Sequence record: PZ239914.1
From: a phage
Length of the DNA stretch: 44,852 bases
Direction: 5' to 3' (one strand)
In this document: in pieces, positions 3,284 to 30,720 of the stretch
Numbering within the stretch: position 1 is the first letter of the stretch
Layout of the letters: every line of letters starts with the position of its first letter
Notes under the pieces: model-generated
What the model was told of the DNA's origin: nothing
The model's database searches: none
Seen by the model: the letters and a program-made list of their open reading frames with translations, nothing else
Program-made: the position numbers and the translations under genes

Positions 3284-4900
3284 CTACTCCCCGGACTCAG
3301 GCATCTCAACTCGCATATCAATCCATCGCCCCGCCGGTATATCTACGGGGTCCATATCCGCCACGCCTTCCACGATGTTTCTTGCAAATTCCGGAACTCC
3401 TGTGTGTTCCCGGTGGAACGTTTTAACAATTATGTCCCCGGTATCCAGAACCTTAAAGTCCACCCACAACAACGGCAACCCGTTGTTGTTACTCGGAATT
3501 GTAAAACCACCATCAACCCCTCCCCAGGCCGGATCCGAGTTAAACCCTAACACTCCGGATACCTTATACACGCCCGTATCGATCCGCTCGCTCTTCACAC
3601 CTTCTGCCTCCTTGTTAAGCTCCGCGGTTCCGTCGCCACGCAACTTAACGATAGGAGACGCGGGCTTAAGGTTGCCGTTAGTGTCAATGGTGGTGTTGGC
3701 GACTGAGTAGAATTTTCCCGCAGGGCCGACAAGGGTGCCGTTGTTGTACATTACCCATATCCTTCCATATGTCGCATGGTCGACAGCCCCGAATACGAAC
3801 CCGGATGTATCGGGGTTTAAATCCGGACTTGCGAGCGCCCCCCATGAAAAATCAATGGTCCAGTTTGTTGTGGAGGCGCTAACCTGGCTATGTTTCGCCA
3901 CGGAGTCCGGGGCCAATGACACTACCGACTTATACCCGAAATCCGCCACGCCCACGTTAGTTCCGGCGGATAATCGTGTAGTGTATTTATTTTGGGTGCT
4001 CCCAACCTCGACTAGGTCGCCGGCCCCGACTCCAACGTTACGCGTTGCCGCTGAGCCAAGCCCCATATTCGTACGGGCTGCGGCCTTGTTGGCAACGTCT
4101 GCCAGGTTCTGCGACGTCTTCATGAATTGCGCAGGGTTGATCGAGTTTTTGAATCCTTCGGCTTCGTCGCGGTATCCCAACGCGGCATCACGGGCGGTTT
4201 GCGCGTCTGTCTTCGCCGCGTTGGATTCGTCGCGAATAACGCCGGTATCCGTCTTAATCTGGTTGGTCTGGTCCTTGATGGCCTGCGTATCAGATTTAAG
4301 CTGATCGGTTTGCGTCTTGATTGTATTGGTGGCGTCGTGGATCGCCTGCGTATCAGCCTTAATCTGGTTGGTGGCGTCGCGAATACCAGCCGTCTCGGTC
4401 TTGAAGCCTTCTGCCTCATTGCGAAATCCTTGCGCAGCTGCTTCCGATGCGGCGGCTTGCTGTTGCAGGTTGCGCATCTCAACAGGGTCGATCTGCTTCA
4501 TTAGCTGCGACAGATAGCCCCATGACATGCCCTGCATAACCAGCCCGTTAGGTAACGTCACTGTGACTTCTTCAGCGTCGCCGAAGATTGCACGCCAGTT
4601 GTTTTCATCCGCGATCATCAAGCGTAATGCCTTCTGTGCCTGGACGGTTACGCCCATCGTTGCCAGCGACATGGTATCGCGCTTAACGCCATCCCACGCG
4701 AGGCCGGTTGCCGTTGGGCCGTCGAACGGCAGAACCAGAGTAAGCGACGTGTCGCTTTCAATGGACGCGATTGCCACGGTGTAGGGGACTTGTCCTACAA
4801 CCAGCGTTAAGAAGTCGCCAGCGTTAAACGCGGTAAACGTCGTGCCAACCCCTACAACCGCCTTGCTGTTGTTCGTTACGGATAGAGTACCCGCTGCCAT
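3284..4900 (-). CDS. side tail fiber protein with coiled-coil repeat region
   Basis: 538 aa from the ATG at 4900 (GAGGA RBS); repeated D-x-T-N-x-I-K-x-D-T-Q-A-I units; Gly/Thr-rich C-terminal region; adjacent to the J homologue. Confidence 0.7.
   Translation of the reverse strand: MAAGTLSVTNNSKAVVGVGTTFTAFNAGDFLTLVVGQVPYTVAIASIESDTSLTLVLPFDGPTATGLAWDGVKRDTMSLATMGVTVQAQKALRLMIADENNWRAIFGDAEEVTVTLPNGLVMQGMSWGYLSQLMKQIDPVEMRNLQQQAAASEAAAQGFRNEAEGFKTETAGIRDATNQIKADTQAIHDATNTIKTQTDQLKSDTQAIKDQTNQIKTDTGVIRDESNAAKTDAQTARDAALGYRDEAEGFKNSINPAQFMKTSQNLADVANKAAARTNMGLGSAATRNVGVGAGDLVEVGSTQNKYTTRLSAGTNVGVADFGYKSVVSLAPDSVAKHSQVSASTTNWTIDFSWGALASPDLNPDTSGFVFGAVDHATYGRIWVMYNNGTLVGPAGKFYSVANTTIDTNGNLKPASPIVKLRGDGTAELNKEAEGVKSERIDTGVYKVSGVLGFNSDPAWGGVDGGFTIPSNNNGLPLLWVDFKVLDTGDIIVKTFHREHTGVPEFARNIVEGVADMDPVDIPAGRWIDMRVEMPESGE
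4150..4400 (-). repeat. in-frame degenerate tandem repeats inside the tail fiber gene
   Basis: Repeated ctgcgtatcag...ttaa..ctg.t.ggt DNA units encoding IRDATNQIKADTQAIHDATNTIKTQTDQLKSDTQAIKDQTNQIKTDTGVI; approximate boundaries. Confidence 0.5.
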
Positions 4901-4921
4901 AGCTAAATCCTCATAAATTGG

Positions 4922-4950
4922 TTGCATTCTTGATCGAGCGGTGTAATACT
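4922..4950 (+). promoter_or_regulatory. candidate sigma70-type promoter (TTGCAT-17-extended -10 TGtAATACT) for the lipoprotein gene
   Basis: ATTGGTTGCA at 4917-4926 overlaps the -35; an 80-bp divergent region separates the tail fiber start (4900) from the lipoprotein start (4981). Confidence 0.4.
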
Positions 4951-4980
4951 GAAACTCGACCAAATATAGGAGATGATACC

Positions 4981-5202
4981 ATGAAAACTTTAATTATGAT
5001 TTGTGCGGTTCTGTTGGCTGGTTGTGCTGTAGAACGCAACAACGGCGATTGCATTACGGTTGCCTACGGTAGCTGCATGTTGCGCTACGTCGACGGGAAG
5101 AAAGTGCCAGCCGGAGATGTGGATATGCGCTTCACTGGTCTGTCTGCCGATAGTGACGGCAACTTCTCGGGTACGGTATCAGTTAAATCGCGGGAGTGGT
5201 AA
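4981..5202 (+). CDS. small lipoprotein (73 aa), candidate superinfection-exclusion factor
   Basis: MKTLIMICAVLLAGC signal peptide with lipobox L-A-G-C; GGAGA RBS; own promoter; opposite strand to the flanking tail genes. Confidence 0.6.
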   Translation: MKTLIMICAVLLAGCAVERNNGDCITVAYGSCMLRYVDGKKVPAGDVDMRFTGLSADSDGNFSGTVSVKSREW

Positions 5203-5204
5203 TA

Positions 5205-6170
5205 ATGGGCGCTGGAGTACTTATCGACTACAACGACGGGCGACCGGTTATGGAGATAACCGCCGGGCTACGCGCGCCGTCATTCTGTACATCATTCTAT
5301 CAGCGCTGCCAGTCTGATAAGACGCTAACTATTAACACTCCGCTAACGCCGGGGTCGGATCTGGTCGTCGTGCTCACAAGTCCCGTTGAAGTGATGGAAG
5401 TCTTCGACCAGACACTGGTCTTGCCAGATCCGTTTTACATAACGTCAATACAGCGTAACGGGGATAGCGGAATAACCTTGCGCGGTGAGGACGCGTTTAA
5501 CGCATATAGCGGGCTTCCATCATGGGGCGGGGTGATTATGGAAGTGCTGCCGGTGGGGTCGCGCAATGCGGGCTTACTGGTGGCGAACTCGACTGACTTT
5601 ACCGCGATATCGAACGTATCCCGGCTTATGACCTGCCGATATGCGCAGCGCGTGTGGGTGAACGGAAGTATGCCATTACCGGTAAGCGGTGTCCCGTTCG
5701 CGCGCTGGGACGACGGAAACGTGTCTGTCGGCTTCGATGGCGGAAGTATTATCGTCCGTAATGCATCCTATGGCGGGATTGACGACGTAGGCGCGGCTGT
5801 TGAAATGGACTTGGTTATATTCAACAATACGCCGCCCACCCCTGGAAACGGCATCACCATGACAAACAACCAGGGGCAGGTCACGTTCTCTACCGTGAAT
5901 AAGCCGTTTGTTATCAATTCCGTTATTAATATCAGCACTGGTGGTAAGAATATCGGTAACAGCCTCGTACAGCTTTCATATACCGGCGCGCTTATTGAGA
6001 ACAACAGCGGATACAACCACGTGAGAATGAATGGGATACGCATGGCAGGCAACGTGGTTAGCGCGGCACGAAATCGCGTGATTGGTAACTACTCACGGCA
6101 GCAATTCCAGATGCCTAACCGCAACATAACCGTACCCACACCGTTACTCGTCATCCCTAACATGTATTAA
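5205..6170 (+). CDS. hypothetical protein (321 aa) co-transcribed with the lipoprotein
   Basis: ATG 3 nt after the lipoprotein stop; Gly/Asn/Thr-rich; no recognised motif. Confidence 0.5.
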   Translation: MGAGVLIDYNDGRPVMEITAGLRAPSFCTSFYQRCQSDKTLTINTPLTPGSDLVVVLTSPVEVMEVFDQTLVLPDPFYITSIQRNGDSGITLRGEDAFNAYSGLPSWGGVIMEVLPVGSRNAGLLVANSTDFTAISNVSRLMTCRYAQRVWVNGSMPLPVSGVPFARWDDGNVSVGFDGGSIIVRNASYGGIDDVGAAVEMDLVIFNNTPPTPGNGITMTNNQGQVTFSTVNKPFVINSVINISTGGKNIGNSLVQLSYTGALIENNSGYNHVRMNGIRMAGNVVSAARNRVIGNYSRQQFQMPNRNITVPTPLLVIPNMY

Positions 6171-20909: not shown

Positions 20910-20998
20910 GCTATCCCCCTGGGATTGTGGCAAAGCGGGCCACCCGCTTGACTTCACGCCTTAATATTATCAGCGATAAAAATAATCGCAAAATTCGC

Positions 20999-21028
20999 TT
21001 GCATTGCGGATGTTGGTTGCAGTATATT
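20999..21028 (+). promoter_or_regulatory. candidate sigma70-type promoter (TTGCAT-18-TATATT) with two TTGGTTGCA motifs
   Basis: AT-rich upstream tract at 20961-20998; motifs at 21012-21020 and 21026-21034; drives the plus genes at 21064-22182. Confidence 0.45.
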
Positions 21029-21063
21029 GGTTGCACACCAACAGAGATATGAAGGAAAACAAA

Positions 21064-21378
21064 ATGACTAACATGACCGTAGCAACTCCAGTAGACGCCG
21101 CAATGGCCCGTTTCAATAAAGCTACCGTAGCGAATACCTTTACCTTTCACGCAATGCGTAACGCGGAAGCGCTGAATCTGTGCCAGAGCATGAATGCTTC
21201 TGAAGCGGCAAAAGCGGCGGTCAACTCCGCGACATTCGATAATCCGGCTTGCGGCCTGGTTCCGGCATCTTTCATAAACGCCCTGGTCGAAGCCTTTAAC
21301 GATTTCATGTGCGTCGATGCCGTTGAAGCTGTATGTGCCCGCTTAACTTCCACCGGTGGCAACATCAAATTCAATTAA
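21064..21378 (+). CDS. hypothetical protein (104 aa), embedded island gene 1
   Basis: ATG with GAAGGA RBS; Ala-rich; opposite strand to the surrounding structural genes. Confidence 0.55.
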   Translation: MTNMTVATPVDAAMARFNKATVANTFTFHAMRNAEALNLCQSMNASEAAKAAVNSATFDNPACGLVPASFINALVEAFNDFMCVDAVEAVCARLTSTGGNIKFN

Positions 21379-21417
21379 ACCAATCGGGGCGAAAGCCCCT
21401 AAAATGAGGACATAAAA

Positions 21418-22182
21418 ATGAGACTGACGAAAGACATTAAAAATCAGATTCTGGCTAACATCCTGCGCGACCATGAAATCGCTGTCGAAGCCAAATCCAT
21501 CATGATGGACTCTCGCGACCTTGCGTACGCCATTACGCTGGACTGTATGCCGGAAGGCATTCGCACGTTCGCAGCGCTCCGCGAGCATATCAAGGCAATC
21601 CGCGATGACCAGTCGCTGATGTACGGCGTCAGCGTCTACACCAACAAGGCGACGTATAGCTATAACACAGACCGCCCGAAAGGTATCGGCAGCGTTTACG
21701 ACGCCTCTTTCGAAATAAACGCAGGCGGCAATGTTCGCACCTTGTCATTGAGCGGCGATGGGCGACAAAACCGCGTACGTCGCGGATACTGGGACATCAA
21801 ATACATGAACAAGCTCGCGCCTGACCTCGGCGATATTGTACCCGGATACGAAGAAGAGATGCTCGCGTCAGTGTGTGAATTGGACGAGGACGGGAAAGCG
21901 CTGCCGATATATCTTCCGCGCGGTCGAGTAGACTACCCTGCGGACCATGATTTCTGTAAGCGCCTGGACCGTAACGACAAGGCCCGCCGCGAGTTGCGAG
22001 CTAAGTATGACGCGTTCAAACTAACCGTTACCGGCGTGCTGGATATGCACAATACCGATAAGAAGCTGATCAAGGCGTGGCCTGAAGTGGAACAGTTCAT
22101 TCCGCACCCTGACAAGCCGAAGTCCACGGCGGTGGCGCCGGACGTGAAGACGTTAAACGAGATTTGCGGTATTCCGCGCTAA
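21418..22182 (+). CDS. hypothetical protein (254 aa), embedded island gene 2
   Basis: ATG with GAGGA RBS; followed by a terminator hairpin; no recognised motif. Confidence 0.6.
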   Translation: MRLTKDIKNQILANILRDHEIAVEAKSIMMDSRDLAYAITLDCMPEGIRTFAALREHIKAIRDDQSLMYGVSVYTNKATYSYNTDRPKGIGSVYDASFEINAGGNVRTLSLSGDGRQNRVRRGYWDIKYMNKLAPDLGDIVPGYEEEMLASVCELDEDGKALPIYLPRGRVDYPADHDFCKRLDRNDKARRELRAKYDAFKLTVTGVLDMHNTDKKLIKAWPEVEQFIPHPDKPKSTAVAPDVKTLNEICGIPR

Positions 22183-22184
22183 CG

Positions 22185-22212
22185 AAAAGGGGGCCATTAC
22201 GGCCCCCGAATT
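22185..22212. terminator. bidirectional terminator between the island and the spanin genes
   Basis: GGGGGCC-attac-GGCCCCC hairpin flanked by A-rich and T-rich tracts. Confidence 0.55.
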
Positions 22213-22427
22213 ATTTGCTGCAACTCCAGGACCTGCGCCCTCAGCTTCGCCCCGCATTCCATATTTTTCACGTCAATCATCAAATCCTCGTCGGGGTCTG
22301 CGGACGGGTTATCGAACTTGCACGGCGGTCGCAGTGCCGACTCCGTTAGCGGCATCAACGGCACGTTGCTTGATCCGCACGCGCTCAGCATCAAAACTAC
22401 AATCAGGACGGTTAGGACGCGTAACAT
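22197..22427 (-). CDS. o-spanin (Rz1-like outer membrane lipoprotein)
   Basis: Signal peptide with lipobox L-S-A-C; Pro-rich mature part; overlaps the 3' end of the i-spanin ORF in another frame. Confidence 0.65.
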   Translation of the reverse strand: MLRVLTVLIVVLMLSACGSSNVPLMPLTESALRPPCKFDNPSADPDEDLMIDVKNMECGAKLRAQVLELQQIIRGP

Positions 22428-22638
22428 ATTTTACAACCTCTTTCGTGATAGTCCTGTATTCCACGTCGCGTGCCTGTTCGGCCTGCACAGACCCCTCGAC
22501 GACCTTAGTTTGCTGCCGTTGGGCTTTCGCTTGCGCTTCTTGCGCCGCTCTCGCCTCAACGCCTGCGCGGTAGGAATCACCCTGCCAGAATCCAACCGCC
22601 AGACCTATAACCAGTCCGATCGCCGCGTATTTAATCAC
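22309..22638 (-). CDS. i-spanin (Rz-like)
   Basis: Probable GTG start at 22638 with AGGGGG RBS; N-terminal TM helix KYAAIGLVIGLAVGFW then a charged helical periplasmic domain. Confidence 0.6.
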   Translation of the reverse strand: MIKYAAIGLVIGLAVGFWQGDSYRAGVEARAAQEAQAKAQRQQTKVVEGSVQAEQARDVEYRTITKEVVKYVTRPNRPDCSFDAERVRIKQRAVDAANGVGTATAVQVR

Positions 22639-23734
22639 GCCATAGCCCCCTGTTTTTAAGCTGCGCAATAGTCATTAGTTCGCCCGTATCGGTGAACATC
22701 TTCGGCACTTTCACGCCTCGCATAATCTGGTCTGCGCGCTGCACCCCATATAATTCCTCCAGAATATGGCGCGGCTGGCGCTGCACCCAGGAGAAGAAAT
22801 CAGTCTGCGCGTCGACCTGCTCACTCAGCAATCGGCCCGCGTCAGCCTTCAGTGCCGGACGCTTACCACTGGGCCAATCTTCCATACCTTTGACTTTCCA
22901 CGTCTCCGTCGAACGGCAGCAATAATGCAGCTTGCCCGGACCAGCGCCATATTGTGACCCCGCCACCACTTTTCCGCCGCGCTTCCCTTTTGTATCGGGA
23001 GTAACATCAACCGGATAAAACAGGCGATCGCGTAGCTGGCACATGGGAGAAGTATGCGTGTCCAATGTAGCCAACCATTGGCGACCTTCGAGAATATCGT
23101 CATTAGCTTTTACCATTAATTCGCGGGCGGTTGCCGCATAGTGGTTGACCGCGGACTTAACAACGCTTGAGATTGCTTGCGCACTACGACCGCCTAGCGC
23201 GCGCCTCACGTCCGCAATAATTTCCATAGTCGGCTTGCCCTGAATGAATCCAGCGCGCACCTGATTCCCGATCTGCGTCCGGGTCCACTCCGAAAGTGAA
23301 TCGGGCCACTGCATCATGGTGTTACCCTGGAACGGGTTTTTCATTGCAGTCGCTGCAATCTGCGCGCCGGTCACAACGCCCACTACTTCGACCGCGGGCA
23401 CGGCGACCGCGGGCTGGATCGCCGCCGTTAATGTGTCGGCGAGATAATCAGCCTCGGTGTCGGCGAACTCCTGGAGGCTTTCAGCCAGCACCTTAAACTC
23501 GGTGCGCAGTTCCGTTTTGACGGTCTTGTCGAGTTGCGTTAAAAGTGTGGTAAGTGCCTTGTTGCTCATGGACTTTTTACCATCAAGTAACTCGGTCAAC
23601 TTACCCAGTAAAGCGGGCCGGAACTTCTCCCACATAGCCAGCACCATTCGCGCCTGGTCATTGCTCAGGCGCTGGGTGAAGATGTGACGGCGAATCATTC
23701 GATCCGCCAAATATTGATTAATTGTCTTCGCCAT
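22631..23734 (-). CDS. head morphogenesis / minor capsid protein (Mu F, SPP1 gp7-like position)
   Basis: 367 aa directly downstream of the portal gene. Confidence 0.6.
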   Translation of the reverse strand: MAKTINQYLADRMIRRHIFTQRLSNDQARMVLAMWEKFRPALLGKLTELLDGKKSMSNKALTTLLTQLDKTVKTELRTEFKVLAESLQEFADTEADYLADTLTAAIQPAVAVPAVEVVGVVTGAQIAATAMKNPFQGNTMMQWPDSLSEWTRTQIGNQVRAGFIQGKPTMEIIADVRRALGGRSAQAISSVVKSAVNHYAATARELMVKANDDILEGRQWLATLDTHTSPMCQLRDRLFYPVDVTPDTKGKRGGKVVAGSQYGAGPGKLHYCCRSTETWKVKGMEDWPSGKRPALKADAGRLLSEQVDAQTDFFSWVQRQPRHILEELYGVQRADQIMRGVKVPKMFTDTGELMTIAQLKNRGLWRD

Positions 23735-27248: not shown

Positions 27249-27263
27249 AAGGGGATTATAACA
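27249..27263 (-). promoter_or_regulatory. candidate extended -10 promoter (TGtTATAAT) upstream of the terminase genes
   Basis: Minus strand TGTTATAAT immediately downstream of the terminator at 27268-27292. Confidence 0.35.
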
Positions 27264-27267
27264 GGCA

Positions 27268-27292
27268 CAAAAAAGCCCACCAAATCGGCGGG
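27268..27292 (-). terminator. intrinsic terminator upstream of the packaging genes
   Basis: Minus strand GCCCGCC-gauuu-GGUGGGC followed by U6. Confidence 0.5.
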
Positions 27293-27301
27293 CTAGGAGG
27301 G

Positions 27302-28859: not shown

Positions 28860-28896
28860 TAAAAAGCCCGGAATTAACCGGGCTTGTTGTTTTATT
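28860..28896. terminator. bidirectional terminator after the Ig-like gene
   Basis: AAGCCCGG-aattaa-CCGGGCTT flanked by A5 and a T-rich run. Confidence 0.55.
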
Positions 28897-29314
28897 CTTC
28901 GGCTCCCGTTACGGTGAAGATGGCGGAAGCCAGCACCCCGCTACCGTCGGAGGCCACCCAAAAAATGTGGGCGCTTCCCGCCTGTGCTGCTGTGATTTCG
29001 CCGGTAGTCTGGTCGATTGTCGCACAGTTCGGGTTCGACGACACCCACTTCCCTGCCTTGTTAGTTGCGTCGGATGGCTGTACCTCAACCGAAGCGGTGG
29101 CCTTCGCACCAACTGCGGCGGATTCCGGTGTGATTGTTACGGTGGCACTTGTCACCGGCTTACTTTCCGGCGCGGGCGGCGGGCTGGGCAACTTCGCGTC
29201 GAATACCCCCGCATGGCTTATCGTACCCGCTACAATAGCGCGTGCGCCTGGGTCTTCGGTTTTAGCCAGCGCGGCGAGCGCGTCCGCATTATGATCAAGA
29301 ATACTTTTCAACAT
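28892..29314 (-). CDS. bacterial Ig-like (Big_2-type) domain protein
   Basis: 140 aa from the ATG at 29314 (GAGGGGG RBS); Ig-like pattern GATIDQTTGEITAAQAGSAHIFWVASDGSGVLASAIFTVT. Confidence 0.55.
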   Translation of the reverse strand: MLKSILDHNADALAALAKTEDPGARAIVAGTISHAGVFDAKLPSPPPAPESKPVTSATVTITPESAAVGAKATASVEVQPSDATNKAGKWVSSNPNCATIDQTTGEITAAQAGSAHIFWVASDGSGVLASAIFTVTGAEE

Positions 29315-29330: not shown

Positions 29331-29822
29331 TTACGCCGCGTTACGCCCGATTCGCTCGGCAACGTCCCACTGCTTACCATCAAATAACGCCTGTCTGCCG
29401 ATTGCACGGCGCACCAGACCCTTAAGCACTTCCCCTCCTTGCTTGCGGAACAGCGGCAGCGTAGCCCGTACCTTCGCCCAGTCACCCAGGCGGATCGCAT
29501 CGTCAAAATCACCCGCGACGTCGTCCGGCATGATCGGACCTGGACCAGCATTGATAACCAGGTCCACCAGCGCGTCGAATTGCGCCTGATTGATGCTCGG
29601 GTGTGCGTACTTGTTCACCCAGTTTTCGGCATACGCCACATCGCGCTTGAGTAGCTCCAGCGCTTCCGCGCGGGTAATGCTTCGAGGCGGATTAGTTCCA
29701 GTATGACCATAGCCCCAGGTATACAGGCCGCGGGCCTGCTCTTTCTTGGTCGCGAAATACGGCACTGGGCTGAAAGCCTCCCATGCTGCCGTAAATCTTA
29801 GACCGTTGTCACTGAATCGCAT
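29331..29822 (-). CDS. endolysin (phage lysozyme, GH24, P22 gp19-like)
   Basis: N-terminal FSDNGLRFTAAWEAF...GLYTWGYGHTG matches the E...GxxTxGxGHTG lysozyme signature. Confidence 0.8.
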   Translation of the reverse strand: MRFSDNGLRFTAAWEAFSPVPYFATKKEQARGLYTWGYGHTGTNPPRSITRAEALELLKRDVAYAENWVNKYAHPSINQAQFDALVDLVINAGPGPIMPDDVAGDFDDAIRLGDWAKVRATLPLFRKQGGEVLKGLVRRAIGRQALFDGKQWDVAERIGRNAA

Positions 29823-30054
29823 GTTTTACCCCATTCAAAACAGCATTACGCAGTGTGCGCAATGCAAACAGCCATATTAACGCGGTCCAGGTGGTATCAG
29901 ATACGTCTCCGGTTTGCAACAATCCGATAAAACAGACCATTGCCGTTAACAGATACAGCACCCGACCGAAAAAGCCATCCCGGACTGACGGCGCATACAC
30001 GTTAAACAGGGACGAAGCCCCGATGATAACAAACAACAGGACGGAGATAATCAT
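29809..30054 (-). CDS. holin/antiholin-like membrane protein (81 aa)
   Basis: Two to three predicted TM segments; immediately upstream of the endolysin. Confidence 0.5.
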   Translation of the reverse strand: MIISVLLFVIIGASSLFNVYAPSVRDGFFGRVLYLLTAMVCFIGLLQTGDVSDTTWTALIWLFALRTLRNAVLNGVKHAIQ

Positions 30055-30341
30055 TTTGCACCCCCCGGAAGTCGGAACGACGCAATAGTCTCCCTGATCC
30101 GGTCGGCGATTGGCATCCAGAAGATCGCGGTTACGAAGCCTAAACCGGCGACAGTGCGCTCACCCGACAAACCAGCCCACTCAGCGATAGCCGGTGCGCC
30201 AAATATGGCACACAGGAAGCCAACTACAACATACAAAACGAAGTTTAGCGGCCCCTTCGTAGCCTCACCATGAATGCGTGCGCCTACGAAGCCACCCGCC
30301 AGACATGCCAGGGCGAATAGCCACTCGTTTAGCTTATCCAT
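30051..30341 (-). CDS. putative holin (96 aa)
   Basis: Three hydrophobic segments and a charged C-terminus; first gene of the lysis cassette. Confidence 0.5.
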   Translation of the reverse strand: MDKLNEWLFALACLAGGFVGARIHGEATKGPLNFVLYVVVGFLCAIFGAPAIAEWAGLSGERTVAGLGFVTAIFWMPIADRIRETIASFRLPGGAK

Positions 30342-30393
30342 AAAAAAGTCCCAGTAAGTTTTATCTCACTGGGACTATATCACGCTTGCATAT

Positions 30394-30720
30394 TTAATCG
30401 AAAATTGACCACTTGCCGACGCCTTTCCACTCCCACCCTTCAGATCGGACGGCCTCGAACATTCGCCCGCCGATCATATCGCGATACCATAGCCACCACA
30501 TACGCAACATGGTCGGGTGCTCCGTGATGCCACGGCGCTTGTATATCTGAAACGTCATGCGGGTAATGCTGGCGGCTTCCACCGCGGGCCAAATCAGGAA
30601 TACCCATACCAACAGCGCCAGCACCGTAAGCAGGCACAGTCCCCAGATCAAACCAAACCAATAAATCACATCGTGTAGCATCGAATTGCCCATTCCGGTT
30701 TGCCAATATGGCGCGCCCAT
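30394..30720 (-). CDS. hypothetical membrane protein (start uncertain)
   Basis: Trp-rich TM segments VIYWFGLIWGLCLLTVLALLVWVFLIW; weak RBS at all candidate starts. Confidence 0.4.
   Translation of the reverse strand: MGAPYWQTGMGNSMLHDVIYWFGLIWGLCLLTVLALLVWVFLIWPAVEAASITRMTFQIYKRRGITEHPTMLRMWWLWYRDMIGGRMFEAVRSEGWEWKGVGKWSIFD

Follow-up and report, generated by a model that had tools for sequence, protein, structure and literature searches.

A probable overlapped spanin pair of the 'Jersey' family among the head and packaging genes of a Dhillonvirus, apart from holin and endolysin

We analyzed a stretch of phage DNA of 44,852 nucleotides (nt) (sequence record PZ239914.1; here called the window) and focused on two overlapping genes on its minus strand, at positions 22197 to 22638. 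In all likelihood, these genes encode a two-component spanin of the genus Dhillonvirus that belongs to the 'Jersey' family of overlapped spanins, and they are the last genes of a unit that also contains the terminase, portal, and MuF genes. One gene encodes the inner-membrane partner (i-spanin) and the other the outer-membrane lipoprotein partner (o-spanin). A 1.1-kb query across the spanin locus matched 158 phage records, 143 of them with at least 80% query coverage, and most were 90 to 95% identical. Nearly all matches were to Escherichia phages assigned to Dhillonvirus (HK578-like siphophages), with BF9 the nearest at 96.5%. The 44.9-kb window, which holds tail, head, lysis, and replication genes, looks like an apparently complete Dhillonvirus genome.

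A first-pass annotation, made from the letters of the window alone, had described an overlapping pair at this position, with the second gene in another frame at the 3' end of the first. Both open reading frames (ORFs) were recovered on the minus strand exactly there, and their identity as an overlapped i-spanin/o-spanin pair was borne out by PHROG matches, a membrane anchor, a lipobox, and cysteines, as detailed below.

Both genes carry the hallmarks of a spanin pair

The i-spanin gene (22309 to 22638, minus strand) encodes 109 amino acids from a GTG start and matches phrog_2536, annotated 'Rz-like spanin' (E=3.6e-36); its assignment also draws on hydropathy and on the position of its cysteine. 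We judged the membrane anchor by Kyte-Doolittle means over 17-residue windows, a heuristic measure. Residues 1 to 17 form the most hydrophobic such window (mean, 1.95), which is conserved in relatives, and the N-terminal anchor spans approximately residues 2 to 18. The protein has one cysteine, Cys80, which is periplasmic and kept across three genera. A single-sequence AlphaFold model of low confidence (predicted local distance difference test score [pLDDT], 55), used like that of the o-spanin for secondary structure only, contains helices at residues 5 to 72 and 84 to 97 joined by a Cys-bearing linker at residues 73 to 83.

The GTG at 22638, which had been proposed as the start of the Rz-like gene, held up on inspection. 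It follows a Shine-Dalgarno-like AGGGGG (22646 to 22651, minus strand) with a 7-nt spacer, located within the 3' end of the MuF-like gene, and it is invariant in 18/18 distinct Dhillonvirus sequences; these 18 sequences make up the sample for selection and conservation at the 442-nt spanin locus. No alternative start fits. An in-frame TTG upstream of the GTG is absent from L020, the most distant Dhillonvirus compared, and the next in-frame start codons lie at least 50 codons downstream, where none preserves the membrane anchor.

The o-spanin gene (22197 to 22427, minus strand) starts with ATG and encodes a 76-amino-acid precursor that matches phrog_5672 (E=1e-26) and phrog_1267 (E=2e-12), both described as 'Rz-like spanin'. 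The phrog_5672 profile (47 positions) spans just the C-terminal part of the protein. Inside the i-spanin gene, a Shine-Dalgarno-like AAGAGG (22437 to 22442, minus strand) precedes the o-spanin ATG with a 9-nt spacer. The lipoprotein signal was judged by a PROSITE PS51257-type lipobox rule. The N terminus, MLRVLTVLIVVLMLSAC, satisfies this rule with Arg3 in the n-region, Cys17, and Gly at +2, in line with the LSAC lipobox first noticed in this Rz1-like ORF. Since the +2 residue is Gly, the protein has no inner-membrane retention signal. The lipobox stretch VLIVVLMLSAC is kept in all relatives compared, and a scan of every ORF of at least 40 amino acids in the window gave two lipobox matches in total, the o-spanin and an ORF at 4981 to 5202. 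From Cys17, the mature protein comprises 60 amino acids, including two further cysteines, Cys36 and Cys58, and 7 prolines (12%), so its earlier description as Pro-rich stands. The single-sequence AlphaFold model, again of low confidence (pLDDT, 60), shows helices at residues 3 to 18 and 53 to 73 with a disordered Pro-rich middle.

Conservation of the two reading frames

The architecture of the spanin genes is 'overlapped', not embedded: the genes share 119 nt (22309 to 22427), and the o-spanin, in frame +1 relative to the i-spanin, extends 112 nt beyond the i-spanin stop. Across the 18 Dhillonvirus sequences, the 442-nt locus contains zero indels. In the part that encodes only the i-spanin, the fraction of variable sites at third codon positions was 0.64, versus 0.17 at second positions (p=3e-8); in the part that encodes only the o-spanin, the corresponding fractions were 0.58 and 0.16 (p=7e-4). 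Pairwise ratios of nonsynonymous to synonymous substitution rates (dN/dS) ranged from approximately 0.02 to 0.24 in these two parts and from approximately 0.03 to 0.24 beyond the i-spanin stop. Together, these patterns show that purifying selection acts on both spanin frames.

The same data bear on whether the 76-amino-acid ORF could be a chance open frame, the 109-amino-acid protein alone being real. Such a view draws on the fact that the ORF is unannotated in many public records, including that of BF9; however, failure of gene callers to report overlapped o-spanin genes is a documented artifact (PMC6139136). The ORF has a Shine-Dalgarno motif and an ATG, its lipobox is kept across three genera at 38 to 47% overall identity, and third-position enrichment and low dN/dS are seen beyond the i-spanin stop, where no other spanin frame is read. 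The probability of a chance frame is thus negligible, and we regard the idea as refuted for practical purposes.

In L017, L018, L019, and L020, the i-spanin stop comes 4 to 6 codons earlier, in the equivalent of window positions 22309 to 22330. Because some Dhillonviruses stop the i-spanin early in this way, the protein can do without its extreme C-terminal tail (here TATAVQVR), and the genus shows overlaps of different lengths. Kongari et al. 2018 (PMC6139136) remark that the overlap-encoded part of i-spanins is divergent, and these early stops fit that remark. As a separate observation, the spanins are less conserved (75 to 97%) than the adjacent MuF, portal, and scaffold proteins (89 to 100%).

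The pair belongs with the 'Jersey' spanins

The 'Jersey' family of overlapped i-/o-spanins includes HK578, EK99P-1, JL1, SSL-2009a, SO-1, and EP23 (Kongari et al. 2018, PMC6139136), and its other listed members are Jersey, SETP3, SS3e, K1G, K1ind1-3, and vB_SenS_AG11 (PMC6139136, SpaninDB). Similarity to the listed members EK99P-1 and vB_SenS_AG11 holds for both partners. The i-spanin is 95% identical to that of EK99P-1 and 36% identical to AG11_08 of the Jerseyvirus (E=3e-15), while the o-spanin is 97% identical to that of EK99P-1 and 46% identical to AG11_09 (E=1e-19). When the comparison was carried across genera, using the Jerseyvirus AG11 and the Kagunavirus Snoke, Dhillonvirus, Jerseyvirus, and Kagunavirus proved to share, at 36 to 47% overall identity, the lipobox, the PPC and E/K-C cysteines of the o-spanin, and the one cysteine of the i-spanin.

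The window pair also has the overlapped architecture and the cysteine and lipobox positions of the family, and it occupies the same place, with the head-morphogenesis gene on one side and the scaffold and capsid genes on the other. There is no substantive difference. The overlap measures 119 nt in the window and a reported 155 nt in Jersey, and within Dhillonvirus, the C-terminal tails of the i-spanins come in different lengths. In addition, phrog_2536 and phrog_5672 are the PHROGs reported for the spanins of the Jerseyvirus SeF1 (PMC9409062).

Spanins are already annotated at this locus in the GenBank records of Bas84, TheodorHerzl, Oekolampad, Opt212 (i- and/or o-spanin), and slur05 and in the EK99P-1 RefSeq record, and the authors of the BASEL collection annotated spanins with SpaninDB (PMC8594841). 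The pair, its overlapped architecture, and its genomic place are therefore known and ordinary for this phage group. The biological import is accordingly small, since family, architecture, and position are all in the literature and GenBank. The practical value lies in annotation: many Dhillonvirus records label both spanin genes 'hypothetical', the BF9 record has no o-spanin annotation, and the o-spanin start in the EK99P-1 RefSeq record is 24 codons too late, giving a 52-amino-acid product without a signal peptide.

The spanin genes lie 6.7 kb from the holin-endolysin cassette

The holin-holin-endolysin cassette of the window occupies 29331 to 30341 on the minus strand (phrog_2359, phrog_2508, and phrog_7; Pfam Phage_lysozyme, E=1.8e-20). 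It consists of a 96-amino-acid holin (30051 to 30341) and an 81-amino-acid holin (29809 to 30054), both with PHROG matches, followed by a lysozyme (endolysin) of 163 amino acids (29331 to 29822) with PHROG and Pfam matches, all on the minus strand. The distance from the i-spanin start at 22638 to the endolysin stop at 29331 is 6693 nt, which agrees with the separation of about 7 kb first proposed for a cassette at these positions. Seven genes lie between, encoding a 140-amino-acid immunoglobulin-like (Ig-like) ORF, a 380-amino-acid phosphoesterase/exonuclease, a 70-amino-acid ORF, the small and large terminase subunits, the portal, and the MuF-like protein. The first-pass annotation had named the terminase and portal genes as separators; both are present, and the Ig-like, phosphoesterase/exonuclease, 70-amino-acid, and MuF-like genes must be added to them.

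The head-morphogenesis gene (MuF/SPP1 gp7-like; 22631 to 23734, minus strand; phrog_241, E=1.7e-115) abuts the pair directly, its stop codon overlapping the i-spanin GTG by 8 nt. On the other side lies an opposite-strand island that carries an Nmad5 gene, and the placement of the spanins between head-morphogenesis gene and embedded island was thus described correctly at the outset.

Gene order is unchanged, with a gap of 5.1 to 6.9 kb, in 11/11 Dhillonvirus loci whose fetched stretch covers both ends. In AG11 and Snoke, a homologous spanin pair is flanked by head-morphogenesis or decoration genes on one side and by the scaffold gene on the other. We found no explicit comment in the literature on the unlinked position of the spanins in Dhillonvirus, Jerseyvirus, or Kagunavirus, only gene lists in which the separation is implicit, such as those of SeF1 (Gp_009/010 versus Gp_063-065; PMC9409062) and P78 (0031-0033 versus 0040; PMC12677095). 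Judging from these sequences, the placement appears to be the norm for the three genera and a feature inherited by the group. The holin, endolysin, and spanin genes of the window do not form a canonical contiguous cassette; adjacency to holin and endolysin is not a defining spanin feature, and T4 provides a precedent.

Several points weigh against our assignment. A Pfam scan (E<=0.1) of both proteins gave no match to Rz (PF03245) or Rz1 (PF06085), and an NCBIfam scan of both gave no spanin family, only sub-threshold lipoprotein signal-peptide matches; there is therefore no detectable sequence homology to Rz/Rz1 of lambda. A literature search found no experiment on any 'Jersey' family spanin, so that function rests on architecture and curated bioinformatic assignment. 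The structure models of both proteins are of low confidence (pLDDT, 55 and 60). As for the transcription unit, the promoter and terminator calls are motif matches only, and the promoter scan was at chance, with 7 sites versus 7.5 expected from shuffled sequence.

The lack of Pfam matches and of experiments, together with the position of the pair away from the lysis cassette, would also suit a non-lysis function at the envelope, for example, superinfection exclusion or receptor masking by proteins that merely have a spanin-like topology. However, the pair presents the full set of spanin hallmarks (overlapped genes, an N-terminal anchor with a predicted helical periplasmic domain, an outer-membrane lipoprotein, and conserved periplasmic Cys in both partners), the genome contains no further spanin candidate, and the PF24052 lipoprotein adjoining the tail-fiber gene is a likelier exclusion factor. 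A second or unimolecular spanin near the lysis cassette was looked for, and none was found. Most surveyed phages of Gram-negative hosts encode a spanin, and spanin-less phages are also listed (Kongari et al., PMC6139136). We consider a non-lysis function very improbable and retain the identification of the pair as a spanin.

Transcription units and proposed mode of action

We assigned promoters and terminators by consensus scan and motif matches, except that the promoter at 27263 to 27255 was read by eye. The minus strand has four strong terminator-like hairpins, all conserved across relatives. The first (30376 to 30347, minus strand; -19.8 kcal/mol) stands directly before the first holin gene. 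The second (28885 to 28864, minus strand; -15.0 kcal/mol) lies downstream of the Ig-like ORF that follows the lysis cassette and precedes the promoter-like TTGACT-N18-CATACT (28855 to 28826). This hairpin is present in 11/11 aligned sequences, the stems in L016 and L020 differing yet still pairing, and the promoter-like motif is present in 8/11. The third (27294 to 27274, minus strand; -15.1 kcal/mol) is followed immediately by the extended -10-like TGTTATAAT (27263 to 27255), upstream of the small terminase gene. All 12 of the sequences that cover the site have the hairpin, its T-run, and TGnTATAAT, although the stem in L020 differs yet pairs. The operon whose last genes are the spanins putatively begins in this region (27255 to 27294).

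The fourth hairpin (22189 to 22207; -17.1 kcal/mol) is GC-rich, consists of GGGGGCC-GTAAT-GGCCCCC and a T-run, and includes the o-spanin stop codon. It is kept in 19 sequences; in several of them, the stem is AAGGGGCC...GGCCCCTT, which would add basal A-T pairs. This hairpin likely works as a terminator in both directions, serving the convergent Nmad5 gene as well.

Between the endolysin and spanin genes, the conserved hairpins that resemble terminators are accompanied by promoter-like motifs, and the sequence thus suggests that the holin-endolysin genes form one transcription unit and the terminase-portal-MuF-spanin genes another. The consensus scan gave no promoter-like site in the MuF gene just upstream of the spanins. 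With no promoter motif of their own, an 8-nt overlap with MuF, and a terminator right after the o-spanin, the spanins look like the final genes of the terminase-portal-MuF operon. The conserved terminator/promoter-like pairs offer a testable transcription map for a genus now employed in phage engineering and as part of the BASEL collection.

From the split cassette, the first-pass annotation had concluded that envelope disruption is under separate transcriptional control, that is, that the pair has its own regulated expression, through which the phage separately times the disruption of the outer membrane. The two conserved hairpins with promoter-like motifs that divide the holin-endolysin genes from the spanin operon speak for this view, as does the fact that the separation is kept in all relatives examined. 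However, there is no promoter-like site directly upstream of the spanins, the overlap of i-spanin and MuF points to coexpression with the packaging and head genes, and the T4 spanins are unlinked too. To our knowledge, separate spanin control has not been claimed for T4. Moreover, in the lambda model, peptidoglycan blocks the spanins until the endolysin acts, and the timing of transcription is not the control point (PMC6139136). Separate transcriptional control was thus an overreach: the lambda spanins are gated by peptidoglycan breakdown, and no spanin promoter motif is present. We regard an own regulation of the pair as improbable and favor its expression with the head and packaging genes.

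The mode of action that we propose follows the lambda Rz/Rz1 model in its steps. The pair would be expressed as the last two genes of the terminase-portal-MuF unit, distinct from the holin-endolysin unit, and translation of the i-spanin is probably coupled to that of MuF. The i-spanin would be anchored in the inner membrane and cross the periplasm as a helical rod, and the o-spanin would carry its lipid on Cys17 and be targeted to the outer membrane. By analogy with lambda, the two would bind via their C-terminal parts, and disulfide-linked dimers would form bridges through the peptidoglycan mesh. Once the holins trigger and the lysozyme clears the peptidoglycan, the freed complexes would fuse the inner membrane with the outer one, and the final obstacle to release would be gone.

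Gating of the lambda spanins by peptidoglycan was reportedly described by Berry in 2012 and by Rajaure in 2015. In lambda, spanins accumulate beforehand and are restrained by intact peptidoglycan, and it is the holin, not spanin transcription, that sets the timing of lysis (PMC6139136). Because spanin action is gated after translation, the placement seen here needs no special regulation, and a position in the head/packaging operon therefore need only ensure late expression. Given that the placement is stable across Dhillonvirus, Jerseyvirus, and Kagunavirus, one could imagine that selection ties the dosage or timing of the spanins to DNA packaging and head assembly, rather than the placement being a frozen accident. 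We give this an outside chance; if it were true, a phage with its spanin genes relocated to the lysis cassette would be less fit.

Comparison with known spanin systems

Rz/Rz1 of lambda resembles the window pair in combining an inner-membrane protein, helical in lambda and predicted to be so here, with an outer-membrane lipoprotein encoded in the +1 frame, each with periplasmic Cys, and the two systems presumably share a mechanism, membrane fusion after loss of peptidoglycan. In contrast, Rz1 is fully embedded in Rz, whereas the window o-spanin overlaps the i-spanin and passes its stop, and the lambda spanins end the S-R-Rz-Rz1 cassette, whereas those of the window lie 6.7 kb away in the head/packaging operon. 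The low-confidence model of the window o-spanin has a C-terminal helix, whereas lambda Rz1 has no predicted or detected helix (Kongari et al., PMC6139136).

PseT.3/PseT.2 of T4 set a precedent for spanins remote from the holin and endolysin genes (PMC6139136), and the T4 o-spanin also has a C-terminal helix. The T4 pair differs in having a separated, not an overlapped, architecture and belongs to a different sequence family. Moreover, holin and endolysin are mutually unlinked in T4, whereas in the window they form one cassette. LysB/LysC of P2, likewise of a different sequence family from the window pair, lie within the P2 lysis gene cluster, unlike the pair described here. The overlapped architecture of LysB/LysC is like that of the window pair (Kongari et al., PMC6139136).

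Neighboring genes and further observations

Two other ORFs were considered as spanins and rejected. The first is the 140-amino-acid ORF after the endolysin (28892 to 29314, minus strand), an Ig-like protein without a signal peptide that carries a Big_2 domain (Pfam, E=5e-12) and matches phrog_215, 'structural protein with Ig domain'. It precedes the terminator at 28885 to 28864. BF9 annotates a mere 55-amino-acid ORF here, phrog_11068 spans only residues 1 to 53, and relatives may thus have a truncated or under-called version of the gene. The second is the lipobox ORF of 73 amino acids at 4981 to 5202 (plus strand), which starts MKTLIMICAVLLAGC and matches PF24052, 'Phage lipoprotein family' (E=2e-21), and phrog_4281. 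It adjoins the tail-fiber gene (3284 to 4963, minus strand), and a DUF6453 membrane protein (5196 to 6170) comes next. This lipoprotein likely has a function of the superinfection-exclusion or receptor-masking type and is not a spanin.

The opposite-strand island (20958 to 22196) lies between the o-spanin terminator and the scaffold gene. It contains the Nmad5-domain gene (21418 to 22182, plus strand; Pfam PF18757, E=9e-55) and an ORF of 109/124 amino acids (21004 to 21378, plus strand; phrog_24635). Among Dhillonviruses, the space between o-spanin and scaffold measures approximately 0.6 to 1.5 kb. The sequences of L007, L009, L013, and L019 diverge directly past the shared terminator, and the island is absent from AG11; the site resembles a variable slot for morons. 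In Snoke (L004, 3408 to 5267), the MuF homologue upstream of the spanin region is annotated with an intein, and the decoration gene is separated from the spanins by an inserted sliding-clamp gene on the opposite strand. The intein-annotated gene and the insertion are another sign that the spanin neighborhood tolerates insertions.

At the lysis cassette itself, the hairpin at 30376 to 30347 has a stem of 12 bp with a T6 run, ends a single base short of the ATG of the first holin (30341), and is kept in 12/12 sequences. Its 5' arm abuts or overlaps the extended -10-like motif TGATATAGT (region 30340 to 30385, minus strand), and the sole purine-rich candidate ribosome-binding site for the first holin (GGGA) lies in its 3' arm. 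Such an arrangement may stop read-through from upstream, while transcripts from the overlapping promoter, which would lack the 5' arm, may expose the ribosome-binding site. Just upstream of this hairpin and the holins, a predicted membrane protein of 108 amino acids (30394 to 30720, minus strand; phrog_2531) might be a further lysis-related or lysis-regulating protein.

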